From positions 64,001 through 128,000 of IMG/VR virus record IMGVR_UViG_3300005673_000003: a DNA stretch of 64,000 nucleotides; one strand, given 5' to 3'. The translations under genes were made by a program, and so were the position numbers. The notes under the pieces are model-generated. The model saw only the letters and a list, made by a program, of their open reading frames with translations. It made no database searches and was not told the origin of the DNA. Shown piece by piece: positions 7,699 through 60,456 of the stretch (the stretch's first letter is position 1; the number at the start of each line of letters is the position of its first letter). Origin of the DNA: a virus.

Positions 7699-7745
7699 AT
7701 TGTAATTAAAAAGATTGATAAATGTCAACATCTATCAATCTTTTT
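7699..7745 (-). promoter_or_regulatory. Early promoter copy 2 with palindromic operator
   Basis: TTGACA-18 nt-TACAAT; AAAAGATTGATA/TATCAATCTTTT inverted repeat flanks the -35 box. Confidence 0.8.
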
Positions 7746-10357: not shown

Positions 10358-10403
10358 AAGGTATGCGATCCACCCTAAAATGTCAACATCTATCAATCTT
10401 TTT
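10358..10403 (-). promoter_or_regulatory. Early promoter copy 3
   Basis: AAAAGATTGATAGATG-TTGACA-17 nt-TACCTT. Confidence 0.75.
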
Positions 10404-16042: not shown

Positions 16043-16090
16043 ATAGTAGCGGCCCACCCCAAAAATGTCAACAACTATCAATCAATTATT
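16043..16090 (-). promoter_or_regulatory. Early promoter copy 4
   Basis: AATTGATTGATAGTTG-TTGACA-17 nt-TACTAT. Confidence 0.75.
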
Positions 16091-17108: not shown

Positions 17109-17590
17109 GCCAACCCTCCATCGACCAGATTCCAGATAGCGTTGTACTGCTCAGGGGTGAGCGTCATTTTTGCGGCCTGGATGAATCGCTGATTTCGCTC
17201 CTTCGCTTTTGATAATGCGGTGCAGACTACTCTAATATGCAATCCCTTAATCGCTCTAGCCTTGGTAAGCCGGAGAAAATAATCAGTATCAGCTCTTTCT
17301 CCCGTATCGTACTTTTTCGCTGCCGCTGCCGCATACTTAGCGTTTATCAGCGTCAGCTCTGCATCTAGGATGAGCTTCAAATCTTTGAGAGTATCGAGCG
17401 GCAGATTATCCAGATCTTCCTGAGTGAAAACTCCCATTACTGTTTCAATGGTTAGAGCTGCCTTAACTTCGCCTCGCCGCTCAGCCTGAATCTCTTCTAC
17501 CGAAAGATGCGTTGGCTTACTGGGAATTCGGGGATTGGGCGAAATTGTGGGTAAAGTTGGCCGCTGTAGAGCCTGGGATTGATTTTGCAT
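17105..17590 (-). CDS. Hypothetical protein
   Basis: GGAGG RBS and leader motif. Confidence 0.65.
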   Translation of the reverse strand: MQNQSQALQRPTLPTISPNPRIPSKPTHLSVEEIQAERRGEVKAALTIETVMGVFTQEDLDNLPLDTLKDLKLILDAELTLINAKYAAAAAKKYDTGERADTDYFLRLTKARAIKGLHIRVVCTALSKAKERNQRFIQAAKMTLTPEQYNAIWNLVDGGLA

Positions 17591-21120: not shown

Positions 21121-21564
21121 ATGAGTAACTTACCTGAAAATCAAGTTCATCTAGAAGCAGGGCATTCGGATTCTAAATTGGCACAATCCGAATCATCGCA
21201 AGCAGAGGAACCTGAGCCGATTACAAAACCCTCACTAGAAGATTTCATGCTCCTCGCGTTAACAGATCTAGAGGGTCTGACCGGAGTTGATTCCTCCGAT
21301 TGGAGTCGCTGGTTCAACGGTGCTTTACTATCGGAGCGCATTTTAATCAAAGCCGCAGAACCCCTTGGATTAACCGCTGGGCAACTTCTAGACTTCATCT
21401 CTCGCAGGCGTGAAGCTACGCTCGGCCTGCGAAAAGCTGGGAGGAAATTCACCCCAAAAGAAATGCAACTGGTAATCAATCGGCAATCAAAAAAGGGCCA
21501 GGGCGGAACAGGAAATTCAGGAGGCAAGTCTAAAGCTTCCAGCCTGGAATCCGTTTGCGCCTAA
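21121..21564 (+). CDS. Cro/CI-type HTH regulator
   Basis: LTDLEGLTGVDSSDWSRWFNG HTH. Confidence 0.6.
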   Translation: MSNLPENQVHLEAGHSDSKLAQSESSQAEEPEPITKPSLEDFMLLALTDLEGLTGVDSSDWSRWFNGALLSERILIKAAEPLGLTAGQLLDFISRRREATLGLRKAGRKFTPKEMQLVINRQSKKGQGGTGNSGGKSKASSLESVCA

Positions 21565-21565
21565 A

Positions 21566-21690
21566 TAAAAATGGGAGGGGTGAACCCCTCCCAGCAATAA
21601 TCAATCAATTAATCGTCGGAAAGGCAGAGCGGAATCAACTTCTACGTAACGAGAAGAAGTTATCAAAGCCCGTCTTTTAGACTCTTAACT
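21566..21690 (-). ncRNA. Candidate antisense small RNA
   Basis: TTGCAA-18 nt-TATAGT promoter (21726-21697); GC hairpin plus U-tract terminator at 21593-21567; carries the complement of the leader motif. Confidence 0.45.
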
Positions 21691-22266
21691 TCCCTCACTA
21701 TATACAAGATCCAGAGAGGCTTGCAACTCGCTCTACGGGCCGCTTGTAGCAAGATCCAATGTCATGATGACAGGTTACGCTGTATAAAATATTGCAAGCT
21801 GTACGGATGCGGCTTGCAAGTAAAGGGCTAGGGGTGGATCAAAAAATAAAAAGAAAGATCCCTTTGCTAAAAATTTGGATCAGGCTACAATCTTGATCGG
21901 TAAAGCCTGGGTGAGCGGCTATCTGGCCTAAAAATTAATCAATTTTTGACCCCCAAATAGCAAATCACCCCCAGAGTTAGCCGCTCTGGAGGTTTTATTA
22001 GTCAAATTTATTTTTCCTAACCATTCAAACAAAAGCACTCAAGGAGAACTTCGATTGAATTTCAGTCGTATGATAACCATCCCTCTCAGGAGGTTTCAGC
22101 TCGTATGATAACACTACGCGCTAGAGATTGCCATAGGGCAGGCAATATTTTTTCTAATGGGAGCAGCCGTTGGTACCAGGGGTATCAGCGGTTTTGTCGT
22201 GCGTTTGCGGCTTTCAATAATCAATCAATAATCAATCAATAATCATCGGAACCGGAGTAGGTTTAT

Positions 22267-41166: not shown

Positions 41167-41212
41167 AAGATAGCCGCTCCCTCTGGAAAATGTCAATATC
41201 TATCAATCTATT
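41167..41212 (-). promoter_or_regulatory. Early promoter copy 6
   Basis: AGATTGATAGATA-TTGACA-18 nt-TATCTT. Confidence 0.7.
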
Positions 41213-43927: not shown

Positions 43928-43972
43928 ACGGTAGGCTTCCATGCTGAAAATGTCAACATCTATCAATCTTTT
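43928..43972 (-). promoter_or_regulatory. Early promoter copy 7 (dnaG)
   Basis: AAAAGATTGATAGATG-TTGACA-17 nt-TACCGT. Confidence 0.75.
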
Positions 43973-46767: not shown

Positions 46768-46814
46768 ATTCTATTGAGCTGATTATTTTTTGTCAATATC
46801 TATCAATCTTTTTT
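46768..46814 (-). promoter_or_regulatory. Early promoter copy 8
   Basis: AAAAGATTGATAGATA-TTGACA-17 nt-TAGAAT. Confidence 0.8.
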
Positions 46815-52140: not shown

Positions 52141-53334
52141 TTATTGAACAAGTTGTATTTGGATATTCTGCTGAATCTCGGCAAGCTGCCAGGGTTCTAG
52201 CGTCAAGCTGGAGAATGCTTCCCCGGTTTCCGCATGGGTCAGCTCGACCGAGGGTACGGCATAAATCCCCTGCACCCGCTCCAGAATGCCTGCGATCGTC
52301 TTTTCAAGCTGCTTATCGCCCCAGATACCTCCTACAGAAGGAGGATTAAGGTTCTGCGAGATAGCCGCCGCTGCCAGATTAAATACCTCAAATTGAGTTA
52401 ACCCATCTATCGCCTTGACCTGGATTACTCCATTCAAAGGAATCACTTCAGCCGCAACTACCACCAGCCTTTCGTCCAGTAATCGGCGAGGTTCTAGCGC
52501 TGCTTCTACAATTGGCTGCATCGTTGCAGGGTAGATGGCAATGGTTCGCAGATCCCGAAAATACCCGTCTAATTCGGGCATCCGGCCTCTAATCACATTC
52601 ACCTTTGTTGCACCAGCCTGGAGCGCGAAGTAGGCATAATCCCGGTCGGTCAAACAGCGATCGCCAGTCCTTAGCCAATCCCTAGTCCTCAGTACCGCAT
52701 CAATCAGCCGCTCTGCATCCCTGCCAGGGGTAACTACTCCCTCGCTGGCAACCGTATCCACGAACGGCACTCCTCGCGCCATCTGATTGAATTCACCATC
52801 TACCAGATTTGTAATTATTCCTGGCTGGCTAATCCGGCAAGGCACCAAAGCGGAATCATCCGTGATTGGAATGTCGGTTTCGACAATGGTGTAAGCACTC
52901 CGGCTACTATCGTAGAAGCTCCGAATTTCTAGCCCTGCTGGAACAGTCACCGGGATGTTATTGGCAACTGCGTCCGCACTGCGAGAAAACCGAACATTGA
53001 TAATTGGATACTCTGCTTCTCGGAGCGTCGTGCCCAGTAGCCGCAACCACTCCAAGATAGTCCCATCCGGCACAAGGTTCATCTCATGCGCGGCTAAGCT
53101 TTGCAGGTAGATCAGCACCCCGGCAAAGATGGCATGAGCACTGCCCGGAGTCTTCGCACTAAAAGGCGATGGATCTCCATTGGGTAAAGGCTGAGCCAAT
53201 CGATCCATGATGGCAGCATAAAGCGCATCATTATCGAATGGATATAACTCCTTGGCAGCGACCAGGCTCGGATCCTGCTGTAGAGCGGATTCTAGCTCAT
53301 AGTACAGTCCGTAATCTGGCATACCATCTCCCAA
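52141..53334 (-). CDS. Baseplate wedge protein J/gp47-like
   Basis: WLRLLG, VPAG, GRDAE, DRCLTDRDY. Confidence 0.8.
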   Translation of the reverse strand: MGDGMPDYGLYYELESALQQDPSLVAAKELYPFDNDALYAAIMDRLAQPLPNGDPSPFSAKTPGSAHAIFAGVLIYLQSLAAHEMNLVPDGTILEWLRLLGTTLREAEYPIINVRFSRSADAVANNIPVTVPAGLEIRSFYDSSRSAYTIVETDIPITDDSALVPCRISQPGIITNLVDGEFNQMARGVPFVDTVASEGVVTPGRDAERLIDAVLRTRDWLRTGDRCLTDRDYAYFALQAGATKVNVIRGRMPELDGYFRDLRTIAIYPATMQPIVEAALEPRRLLDERLVVVAAEVIPLNGVIQVKAIDGLTQFEVFNLAAAAISQNLNPPSVGGIWGDKQLEKTIAGILERVQGIYAVPSVELTHAETGEAFSSLTLEPWQLAEIQQNIQIQLVQ

Positions 53335-59746: not shown

Positions 59747-60456
59747 TAAGCGGTCACTGGCTGCAATTCCCGATGCTTCCAGATTGGGTCAGGAACGCCC
59801 GCCTCTTGGAAGCCTCTATCTCTTAGCAAGCAGGCCGCACATTTACCGCAACCCCCTTTAACGCCTTGATAGCAGGTATGAGTCAGCTTCATGATTGACT
59901 CAAATTTATCTCCCATCACCTCCATTGCTAGGTGGACTGATTGAGCCTTGGTGAGGCTCATTAACGGAGTTTCGATAATGAATTTCCCAGGCTCTCCAAA
60001 ATTGGCAAGGCTTAAAGCATCCTGAAGCGCATCAATAAATACTCTGCGGCAATCTGGATAGCCAGAATAATCCGTCTCGCATACACCAGTAAACAATGTA
60101 TCAATCCCTCGCACGATCGCTCGATTGGATGCAATCGTAAGGAACAAAGCATTTCTGGATGGTACAAAGGTGCTGGCTATACCATCCGGTACATCCCCAG
60201 GAGCAGAATATTCTGGCACCTGATTATCAGAAACCAGCGGCGAGGTTCCTTTAAGCACTTTCCCCAGCTCGATAACTTCATGGGATTCAACGCCCATAAT
60301 CTTGCCTATCTGCACTGCAGATTCAATCTCGATTGAATGCTTTTGGCCGTAATCGAATGTGACGCAGTGTACTTTATCGAAAACCTGCTTAGCAACCGCC
60401 AAACAGGTTGTAGAGTCCTGACCGCCGCTAAGAATAACCAAACATTGATTAGACAT
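59746..60456 (-). CDS. queC: 7-cyano-7-deazaguanine synthase
   Basis: SGGQDS, FDYGQKH, VPSRN, SGYPDCR, TCY...CGKCAAC. Confidence 0.96.
   Translation of the reverse strand: MSNQCLVILSGGQDSTTCLAVAKQVFDKVHCVTFDYGQKHSIEIESAVQIGKIMGVESHEVIELGKVLKGTSPLVSDNQVPEYSAPGDVPDGIASTFVPSRNALFLTIASNRAIVRGIDTLFTGVCETDYSGYPDCRRVFIDALQDALSLANFGEPGKFIIETPLMSLTKAQSVHLAMEVMGDKFESIMKLTHTCYQGVKGGCGKCAACLLRDRGFQEAGVPDPIWKHRELQPVTA

Follow-up and report, generated by a model that had tools for sequence, protein, structure and literature searches.

We analysed a stretch of 64,000 nucleotides, bases 64001–128000 of the IMG/VR virus record IMGVR_UViG_3300005673_000003 (hereafter the window; w marks a window coordinate). 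It was found to contain, on the minus strand at w21566–21690, a conserved candidate gene of about 125 bases whose non-coding RNA product appears to be a credible RNA regulator. To judge from its sequence, the gene is probably carried by a 149-kb cyanobacterial phage-plasmid. A first-pass annotation of this DNA had proposed a self-contained minus-strand unit here, and this stands as the best reading, given an orphan terminator, promoter hexamers that are kept in a relative (L012), the lack of an open reading frame (ORF) and an open seed; its transcription we infer. On this basis we regard it as probable that a real minus-strand small RNA (sRNA) gene exists at this place. A further proposal, which we hold tentatively and as a serious possibility rather than a probability, is that the RNA pairs with the motif-bearing leaders of the phage, chiefly the leader of the replication operon, and also with local read-through RNA.

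Sequence features of the candidate RNA gene

The first-pass annotation had placed, between a regulator gene and rep, a promoter of the form TTGCAA-18-TATAGT and a terminator with its U-tract on the minus strand alone. Both signals were recovered (at w21726–21697 and w21593–21563, respectively), as was the setting, with a helix-turn-helix (HTH) gene to the left and the rep/dnaB module to the right. The 3′ sequence of the RNA and the sequences of the dnaB and vWA leaders were also as quoted. All coordinates of the unit and of the other features mentioned below are collected in Table 1.

The terminator hairpin reads TGGGAGGGG-TTCA-CCCCTCCCA (w21593–21572) and is followed on the minus strand by the tract TTTTTATTT (w21571–21563). 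On the plus-strand side of the hairpin, AGCAATAATC comes next, without a U-run. The U-tract abuts the stop codon of the HTH gene, and the overlap with that gene is at most about 2 nt. When the whole genome was scanned, about 22 strong terminators (hairpin plus U-run) were obtained. Among them the terminator of this unit was the only orphan, having no co-oriented ORF of at least 60 amino acids (aa) for 5.8 kb upstream; most of the others lay 20–105 nt behind a co-oriented gene.

Upstream, the two promoter hexamers match at 9 of 12 positions, and 5 kb of sequence contained 9 such sites, compared with 6.3 ± 2.8 in shuffles. The RNA that would run from this promoter to the U-tract folded at −39.9 kcal/mol (z = −3.6). 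Its predicted 5′ domain has an outer helix composed of AGUUAA/UUAAUU, GUC/GAC, AAAG/CUUU and CGGGC/GC.CUG, and an apical stem CUUCU/AGAAG. Between this domain and the terminator lies the predicted open seed, GAUUGAUUAUUGC; the RNA immediately 5′ of the terminator hairpin reads ...CCUUUCCGACGAUUAAUUGAUUGAUUAUUGC. The seed is the antisense of GCAAUAAUCAAUC, that is, of the best-conserved half (the 5′ half) of the leader motif described below, together with its preferred CAAU flank. The RNA is complementary to the leaders because a plus-strand copy of the motif, AATCAATCAATTAA, and a Shine-Dalgarno (SD)-like box, GGAAAGG, both lie within the unit.

The window contained no match at the gathering score of any Rfam family, and c4 RNA was absent from the matches at E ≤ 5 in w21450–22300. 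A weak Rfam match to the rpsL leader (E = 2.6) is uninformative. A blastn search of phage and plasmid collections returned no match.

Conservation of the unit in relatives

Three relatives (L012, L015 and L016) were reached through the homologues P0011, P0012 and P0013 of the HTH protein. P0011 showed 57% identity by BLASTP, and P0012 and P0013 showed 43% each. All three relatives share one layout: downstream of the HTH stop codon come an A-run, a G+C-rich hairpin and then a plus-oriented copy of the motif. The U-run falls on the minus strand in all four lineages, and the hairpin sequences differ. In L012 the hairpin is TTGGGAGGG..CCCTCCCAA, followed by GCAATAATCAATCAATTAAT; in L015 it is GGGGAGG..CCTCCCC, followed by (CAAT)5, at which point the contig ends; in L016 it is GCTGGAG..TCCAGC, preceded by A9 and followed by AAATCAATTAATCC.

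The promoter stretch is fully visible in L012 alone, the contig of L015 stopping short of the promoter region. L012 carries the hexamers TTGCAG and TATAGT at the same 18-nt spacing. Eleven of the 12 hexamer positions are identical to those of the window, and 10 of the 18 spacer positions; the 11-mer TTGTATATAGT around the −10 box is identical. The L012 contig, whose source environment is that of SRR19886351, breaks off shortly beyond the −35 box, so that conservation of the promoter is a single comparison. In L016 a similar −10 box, TTGTATCATAG, lies about 130 nt upstream of its terminator.

L012 and the window are 70% identical over 2.7 kb. Within the element the identity is 70–83%, compared with 32–48% for other nearby non-coding stretches, and the seed lies in the longest block that is invariant between the two. 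The two RNAs, folded independently, gave one predicted architecture, in which a long imperfect hairpin at the 5′ end is followed by an open stretch and then by the terminator. When the window fold was projected onto the window/L012 alignment A1, all 18 of the 18 pairs of the outer helix were formed in both sequences, with one compensatory change from C-G to U-A. A consensus fold by RNAalifold on a MAFFT alignment was set aside, since its centre was mis-paired owing to indels. The leader motif is also shared by L012, with 4 copies in 2.7 kb.

Conservation of this kind could also reflect a function of the plus strand, as an mRNA element located between cistrons of the rightward operon. Such an element might stabilise processed mRNA as a 5′ hairpin, offer ribosomes a standby or decoy site, or form the leader of a small gene that has escaped recognition. 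The plus strand does read like every other leader of the phage (GCAAT-motif-AATCG-SD) and is a match for the minus strand in its folding (−38.6 kcal/mol, z = −4.5), and a plus-strand frame of 65 codons opens at ATC 21634 (21634–21831). In L012, however, this frame is shifted by a 1-nt indel and stopped by a TAA, and no ATG, GTG or TTG follows the SD-like GGAAAGG in either the window or L012. The U-run shared by the four lineages and the conserved promoter hexamers all belong to the minus strand, and we consider a plus-strand function very unlikely. Two minus-strand frames were also rejected. The one from TTG 21666 (21 aa) is not kept in L012; the one from TTG 21752 (29 aa) is open there, but its changes are mostly non-synonymous and its start lies upstream of the −35 box. 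To judge from these sequences, neither strand of the unit holds a conserved ORF. As the two strands fold about alike, the choice of strand rests on the promoter and the terminator.

Scans of IMG/VR with the Rep, HTH and DnaB proteins found no close relatives. The Rep homologues (P0002–P0009) were distant, partial matches on contigs with other gene neighbourhoods. A DNA pattern for the leader 19-mer gave one match, on an unrelated contig, and a pattern for the 5′ domain gave one match, in an unrelated coding region. A pattern of motif plus SD box matched nothing but the start of rpsL (codons for MPTINQLIRKG), in a Saccharibacteria metagenome-assembled genome and in a groundwater contig. At L013:1511–1533 and L014:5434–5456 the motif with its flank, ATCAATCAATTAATTCGGAAAGG, is identical to the INQLIRKG codons at the start of ribosomal protein S12; these matches were treated as coincidence.

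The loci of two distant HTH homologues (L017 and L018) were left out of the comparison, as they carry a different small unit on the plus strand and no motif. This conserved plus-strand unit (L017:900–1030 and L018:740–850) is made up, in order, of GTTATAGGAATCTATAAT, CTTCACAAAGC..ACTTTTGGT and a hairpin ending in a U-run. Here another candidate small RNA would occupy the same genomic position.

The leader motif and the pairing potential of the RNA

The 14-mer AATCAATCRATTAT (at most 2 mismatches) occurs 64 times in the window, compared with 1.5 expected. The 148.7-kb genome contains 149 copies of the 12-mer AATCAATCRATT (at most 1 mismatch), and the motif stands in front of about one-third of the phage's genes. 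Ninety of the 149 copies are intergenic, in a genome of which about 10% is intergenic; of the copies within ORFs, 50 are sense and 9 antisense. The exact copies are likewise oriented with respect to the local genes (86 sense vs 17 antisense). For 60 of the 149 copies, the next 30 nt contain an SD-like box and a start codon, in many cases 10–21 nt after the motif, and the motif ends 2–8 nt before the SD box. Copies occur also in structural regions and within the tape-measure ORF. Only CAAT-AATCAATCRATT-AT, a stretch of about 18 nt, carries information content, and no −35 element is conserved upstream of it. Two promoter families were recognized in the genome, AGATTGATAGATG-TTGACATTTT-17-TAnnnT and GAGACATAAT-N4-ATGTAAGC. 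In both, the motif begins 5–16 nt after the −10 box, which places it at the very 5′ end of the primary transcripts. The motif was not found in the literature in a phage context.

In a mock-regulator test, the antisense of each of the 149 copies was scored for its mean in-register complementarity to all the others. The copy at the sRNA locus ranked second of the 149 by this measure of consensus-likeness. Its antisense can form 16 or more contiguous bp with 48 copies, and with 16 copies it can form 18 or more. This copy is an A variant; it therefore templates a U at the variable A/G position, so that the RNA can pair with both variants of the motif. In a genome scan with RNAduplex (background −13.9 ± 4.6 kcal/mol), the best trans sites were leaders. 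The top site was w26491 (−38.4 kcal/mol), and the replication-operon leader at w22221 came second (−38.0 kcal/mol). The first-pass annotation had assigned many targets to the RNA: a potential to pair with dozens of leaders was indeed found, and the targets themselves we infer.

Among these leaders, the one of the replication operon is the best-supported candidate for a specific trans target. It contains tandem copies of the motif and, over 27 nt, closely repeats the sequence at the sRNA locus (Table 1). A match of 25 of 27 positions is likewise seen in L016, between the copy beside the terminator and the leader of the first replication-module gene, in a sequence that is L016's own, TCTAAAAATCAATTAATCCTCAGATTT. 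This lineage-specific match gives the best hint of a specific target, and could also reflect a lineage-specific leader consensus.

From these features the following mechanism can be put forward. A minus-strand RNA, w21566–21690, would be transcribed from its own sigma-70-type promoter and ended by the intrinsic terminator that abuts the HTH stop codon. It would consist of the 5′ hairpin domain, the 13-nt seed and the terminator. The seed would act as antisense to the leader motif and, once the 5′ hairpin opens, the adjacent UUAAUUAGCAGCCUUUCC (written 3′–5′) would act as antisense to the SD box. In cis, the RNA would pair with rightward read-through transcripts from the HTH gene; in trans, it would pair with motif-bearing leaders, above all with the replication-operon leader 600 nt downstream. 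The resulting duplex would block the ribosome-binding region or serve as a substrate for RNase III/E. The RNA would in this way regulate the expression of replication genes and early genes, with an effect that might be positive or negative in sign. It would be a free-standing member of a wider set of 3′ ends carrying the antisense of the motif, rather than a unique master switch.

The cis pairing deserves separate consideration. The RNA could be real and yet purely local, a countertranscript similar to lambda OOP. By transcriptional interference or duplex cleavage it would restrain rightward transcription that runs on past the HTH gene into the origin/replication region, and its match to other leaders would be incidental, owing solely to a motif copy that falls within the overlap. 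The cis complementarity is perfect over 125 nt, and the duplex for the seed window is predicted at −73.9 kcal/mol, compared with at best −38 kcal/mol in trans. The HTH gene is without a plus-strand terminator of its own, and the position of the RNA between an HTH regulator and initiator/helicase genes mirrors cII-oop-O (PMC5869508). The predicted RNA, however, ends at the stop codon and would overlap essentially no HTH coding sequence, unlike OOP, which overlaps cII by 52 nt. Moreover, a local function needs neither a motif copy kept in four lineages, nor the second rank among 149 copies, nor the placement of that copy in the open segment. A purely local role is, in our opinion, rather unlikely.

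A rightward promoter-like site of the replication leader is present also in L016 (TTGCCT-16-TACAAT). The candidate RNA is encoded about 170 nt upstream of this predicted rep promoter. Since the predicted rep-leader promoter (w21864–21891) lies downstream of the sRNA promoter (w21697–21726), the two units diverge without overlap. After the promoter-like site at w21864, a stem (21909–21926/21953–21970) carries a degenerate sense motif, AAUUAAUCAAUU, in its loop, and is followed by a terminator-like hairpin with UUUUAUU (to w21998). The region w21864–21998 is a possible attenuator or plus-strand small RNA in the replication leader, and the loop of w21909–21970 could kiss the seed of the minus-strand RNA.

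Anti-motif and terminators across the genome

The antisense core of the motif, ATTGATT, was found within 30 nt upstream of 7 of the 22 strong terminators, compared with 0.46 expected (binomial p = 2e-7). An eighth terminator carries a variant of this anti-motif, and the sense core precedes none. In its longer form AATTGATTGATT, or as the partial form ATTGATTAA, the anti-motif sits 2–17 nt upstream of 7–8 of the approximately 22 terminators. Most of these close protein-coding operons that begin with the sense motif, so that both ends of the same mRNA could pair. Pairing between the 5′ and 3′ untranslated regions (UTRs) of icaR mRNA is a single-gene precedent. The unit w21566–21690 appears to be the only anti-motif/terminator unit without a gene, and many phage RNAs may share the antisense box. 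A second strong terminator, outside the window (genome 9561–9591, minus strand), likewise has no co-oriented ORF of at least 60 aa close by, the distance being 4.6 kb; it is without the anti-motif and is near a reported split Rep gene.

The first-pass annotation had described the RNA as a master regulator with a role in immunity. As the anti-motif recurs before the terminator at 7–8 other transcript ends, the RNA cannot be called a unique master. The motif is also borne by maintenance genes (rep operon, dnaB and parA); hence the RNA cannot simply silence lytic genes, and an immunity role is not supported.

The anti-motif/terminator module could be an RNA pairing system, acting by 5′-3′ pairing or through 3′-UTR-derived regulators, or it could be a DNA-level site. 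In its widest form, the RNA pairing system would be a genome-wide code, in which leader/anti-leader pairing determines how most phage messages, and the replication operon, are translated or how stable they are. Pairing would occur within molecules, between mRNAs, and with the sRNA supplying the antisense box alone. We think such a code quite improbable; if true, it would be global post-transcriptional control of a kind not described for any phage.

Several points weigh against the proposal that the RNA is a regulator that pairs with leaders. The promoter match by itself is at chance level and falls outside the two clear promoter families of the phage. Among the relatives the promoter is clear in L012 only, and its support comes solely from this conservation. 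Two sequences give almost no covariation power, and 253 of 500 shuffles did as well. The fold predictions sequester the anti-SD box in the 5′ hairpin and favour both strands about equally, in the window and in L012. Complementarity is automatic for a transcript across any plus-strand copy of the motif, and the copy could perhaps be conserved for a plus-strand or DNA role. With its fit to the quasi-palindrome AATYRATYRATT, the motif could be a site read by a protein. Finally, the presence of the anti-motif at 7 of 22 terminators suits a general 3′-end or DNA-level function equally well.

The chance-level promoter, the quasi-palindrome and the terminator-linked anti-motif would all be in keeping with the absence of a dedicated sRNA. 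The unit would then be a general terminator module insulating the HTH gene from leftward transcription out of the origin/replication region. A phage protein would read the motif as DNA, in the manner of a stoperator or an operator, and the hexamers would belong to origin or iteron DNA. An anti-motif-like box, AGATTGATAGAT, is indeed found upstream of the −35 box in nine strong promoters, and GGCTTGCAA, CAAGATCCA and GATC repeats surround the −35 box of the unit, beside rep. An insulator nevertheless leaves unexplained why 100 nt from the hexamers to the hairpin are conserved, why the RNA of L012 folds alike, with a compensatory pair, and why the hexamers are kept while the spacer drifts. Leftward promoter-like sites at w22070–22134 would, besides, meet another hairpin first (w21967–21993). 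We consider this explanation unlikely, and retain leader pairing by a minus-strand sRNA as our tentative proposal.

Genomic setting and other features

The complete virus record is 148,728 bp long, with direct terminal repeats present. The cyanobacterial palindrome GCGATCGC occurs 68 times, compared with about 2 expected. Searches of this element for an integrase, a resolvase, or a tyrosine or serine recombinase found none. It is reasonable to regard the element as a plasmid-prophage (phage-plasmid) of a cyanobacterium, given the excess of the palindrome, the lack of a detected recombinase and the presence of ParA-like and RHH genes. A T7-type RNA polymerase was not found in the element, but the same search was also empty in all control genomes, so that this negative carries no information.

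The candidate sRNA locus sits in a non-coding stretch of 540 bp (w21565–22104). To the left, the HTH gene is the first rightward gene of an operator-rich divergent region. To the right lies a rightward module comprising a 115-aa gene, a 477-aa gene (weak replication-initiator match) and the gene for DnaB. No homologue was found for the 115-aa protein, the first of the replication operon.

About 320 bp between a minus-strand gene of 114 aa and the plus-strand HTH gene (w20802–21120) contain repeated TTTACA/TGTAAA boxes, which are kept block by block in L012. These boxes are probably the operators of a genetic switch. Besides the HTH gene at w21121–21564, an HTH protein is encoded at w20457–20801. 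Other repeats adjoin rep, at w21700–21900 and w22066–22112: GGCTTGCAA occurs twice, with a third near-copy, and CAAGATCCA and TCGTATGATAAC occur twice each (the latter 35 bp apart), with six GATC sites within 190 bp. They are possibly origin or iteron DNA. At w2100–2120 (genome 66100–66120, minus strand) a strong terminator hairpin stands between a promoter of the AGATTGATAGATG family and the motif and ribosome-binding site of the downstream gene; it is a possible 5′ attenuator.

Table 1. Positions of the candidate RNA gene, its parts and related features. Positions are window coordinates unless marked as genome.
Feature	Position	Strand	Remarks
Predicted non-coding RNA, ~125 nt	21566..21690	−	5′ end placed ~7 nt past the −10 box; 3′ end in the U-tract
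−35 box TTGCAA	21721..21726	−	18-nt spacer to the −10 box
−10 box TATAGT	21697..21702	−	Inside TTGTATATAGT
5′ domain, long imperfect hairpin	21607..21690	−	Predicted fold
Anti-SD box CCUUUCC	21618..21624	−	Antisense of plus-strand GGAAAGG; invariant in L012
Single-stranded seed GAUUGAUUAUUGC, 13 nt	21594..21606	−	Predicted unpaired probability ≥0.9; mostly open in L012
Intrinsic terminator	21563..21593	−	9–10 bp G+C-rich hairpin 21572–21593 and U-tract 21563–21571; dG −18.1
Leader-motif copy AATCAATCAATTAA	21599..21612	+	No start codon past SD-like GGAAAGG (w21618–21624)
Replication-operon leader	22215..22251	+	Tandem motif copies and TAATCATCGGAA before ATG 22267; 25/27 identity with w21595–21621
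Rightward promoter-like site of replication leader, TTGCTA-16-TACAAT	21864..21891	+	140 nt from the sRNA promoter
HTH gene, 147-aa protein	w21121–21564	+	Weak HTH_19 match; left neighbour, convergent with candidate RNA; stop codon 21562–21564
dnaB leader	w24069		Motif-bearing
vWA leader	w10332		Motif-bearing
ParA-like ATPase gene	w12354–13052		
RHH protein gene	w11958–12314		
Promoter family AGATTGATAGATG-TTGACATTTT-17-TAnnnT	w2124–2152, 7699–7728, 10358–10386, 16043–16071	−	Near-identical strong promoters
Promoter family AGATTGATAGATG-TTGACATTTT-17-TAnnnT, continued	w19520–19548, 41167–41196, 43928–43956, 46768–46796	−	
Promoter family GAGACATAAT-N4-ATGTAAGC	w55699, w55565		Mostly outside the window
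Anti-motif and terminator, window	w11897–11935, w14581–14617, w27403–27466, w38432–38485		
Anti-motif and terminator, genome	Genome 17509–17559, 53160–53231, 59937–59975		
Units with 5′ motif and 3′ anti-motif	w14581–16071, w11897–13078, w38432–39906		w11897–13078 is the parA-RHH operon
rep-dnaB operon, 5′ motif and 3′ anti-motif	w22215–27466		Terminator end w27403–27466

Comparison with known systems

Start-associated phage motifs, such as the SAS of Cluster K mycobacteriophages, have been known since 2011 without an identified reader. Here a comparable motif is accompanied by a conserved candidate RNA gene whose predicted open seed is its exact antisense, and by antisense boxes at many mRNA 3′ ends. 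The question of the reader thus becomes directly testable with one small RNA and one seed. The unit also points to a possible RNA layer in the control of replication and lysogeny in cyanobacterial phage-plasmids, a group almost without experimental description.

Plasmid copy-control RNAs (CopA, RNA I and RNAIII of pIP501) are encoded inside the rep leader and pair by loop-loop kissing. Like these countertranscripts, the candidate is a small terminator-ended antisense RNA next to rep and is complementary to the rep leader. Unlike them, it is not encoded opposite the rep leader itself, and it matches that leader through the duplicated 27-nt box alone.

Stoperators are dozens of short asymmetric sites, oriented with transcription and lying near gene boundaries, that are read as DNA by a repressor. 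The leader motif likewise forms dozens of short, asymmetric and oriented sites near gene boundaries. Stoperators are, however, bound by the repressor, whereas the motif keeps a fixed distance before the SD box, at mRNA 5′ ends. The stoperators of Cluster A mycobacteriophages (L5 gp71 sites) are mentioned in the report on the SAS/ESAS of Cluster K mycobacteriophages, an asymmetric phage-wide motif upstream of many start codons, whose reader that report left open as ‘either RNA or protein’ (PMC3203893). The present motif resembles SAS in being asymmetric, in having one orientation relative to the genes and in lying just upstream of starts. It differs in that SAS takes in the SD box and is found solely in the non-structural genome half, whereas here the motif is 5′ of the SD box, genome-wide and quasi-palindromic, and is accompanied by a candidate gene for a complementary RNA.

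The c4 RNA of phage-plasmids has a′/b′ loops and is processed by RNase P. In P1 and P7 its partners for pairing in trans are repeated boxes, including a ribosome-binding site, that lie further downstream on the same side of the genome, and it helps keep genes silent (PMC8198154). The antisense boxes of the candidate RNA could similarly pair with repeated boxes that include the ribosome-binding region; 25 of 27 positions match in the replication leader, and at least 16 bp can form with 48 leaders, as a potential only. Kinship with P1 C4 or P4 CI RNA, to which the first-pass annotation had likened the candidate, is nevertheless not supported. Those RNAs are cut from the leader of the operon that they control and carry their boxes in loops, whereas the candidate appears to be a separate convergent unit with its own predicted promoter and terminator and a linear seed. 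It has no match to Rfam RF01695, and its potential targets number dozens, compared with two for c4.

Lambda OOP, a short RNA transcribed leftward from its own promoter to its own terminator, is encoded between cII and O and overlaps cII by 52 nt (PMC5869508). The candidate, too, is a short convergent unit between a regulator gene and a replication initiator gene, with its own predicted promoter and terminator, and is antisense to the mRNA of the rightward operon. It differs in its negligible overlap with the HTH gene and in being the antisense of a motif of about 150 copies and of a duplicated replication-operon leader, whereas OOP has one cis target; the two RNAs show no sequence relationship. 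By position and build, the candidate RNA would therefore stand closest to lambda OOP, closer than to c4.

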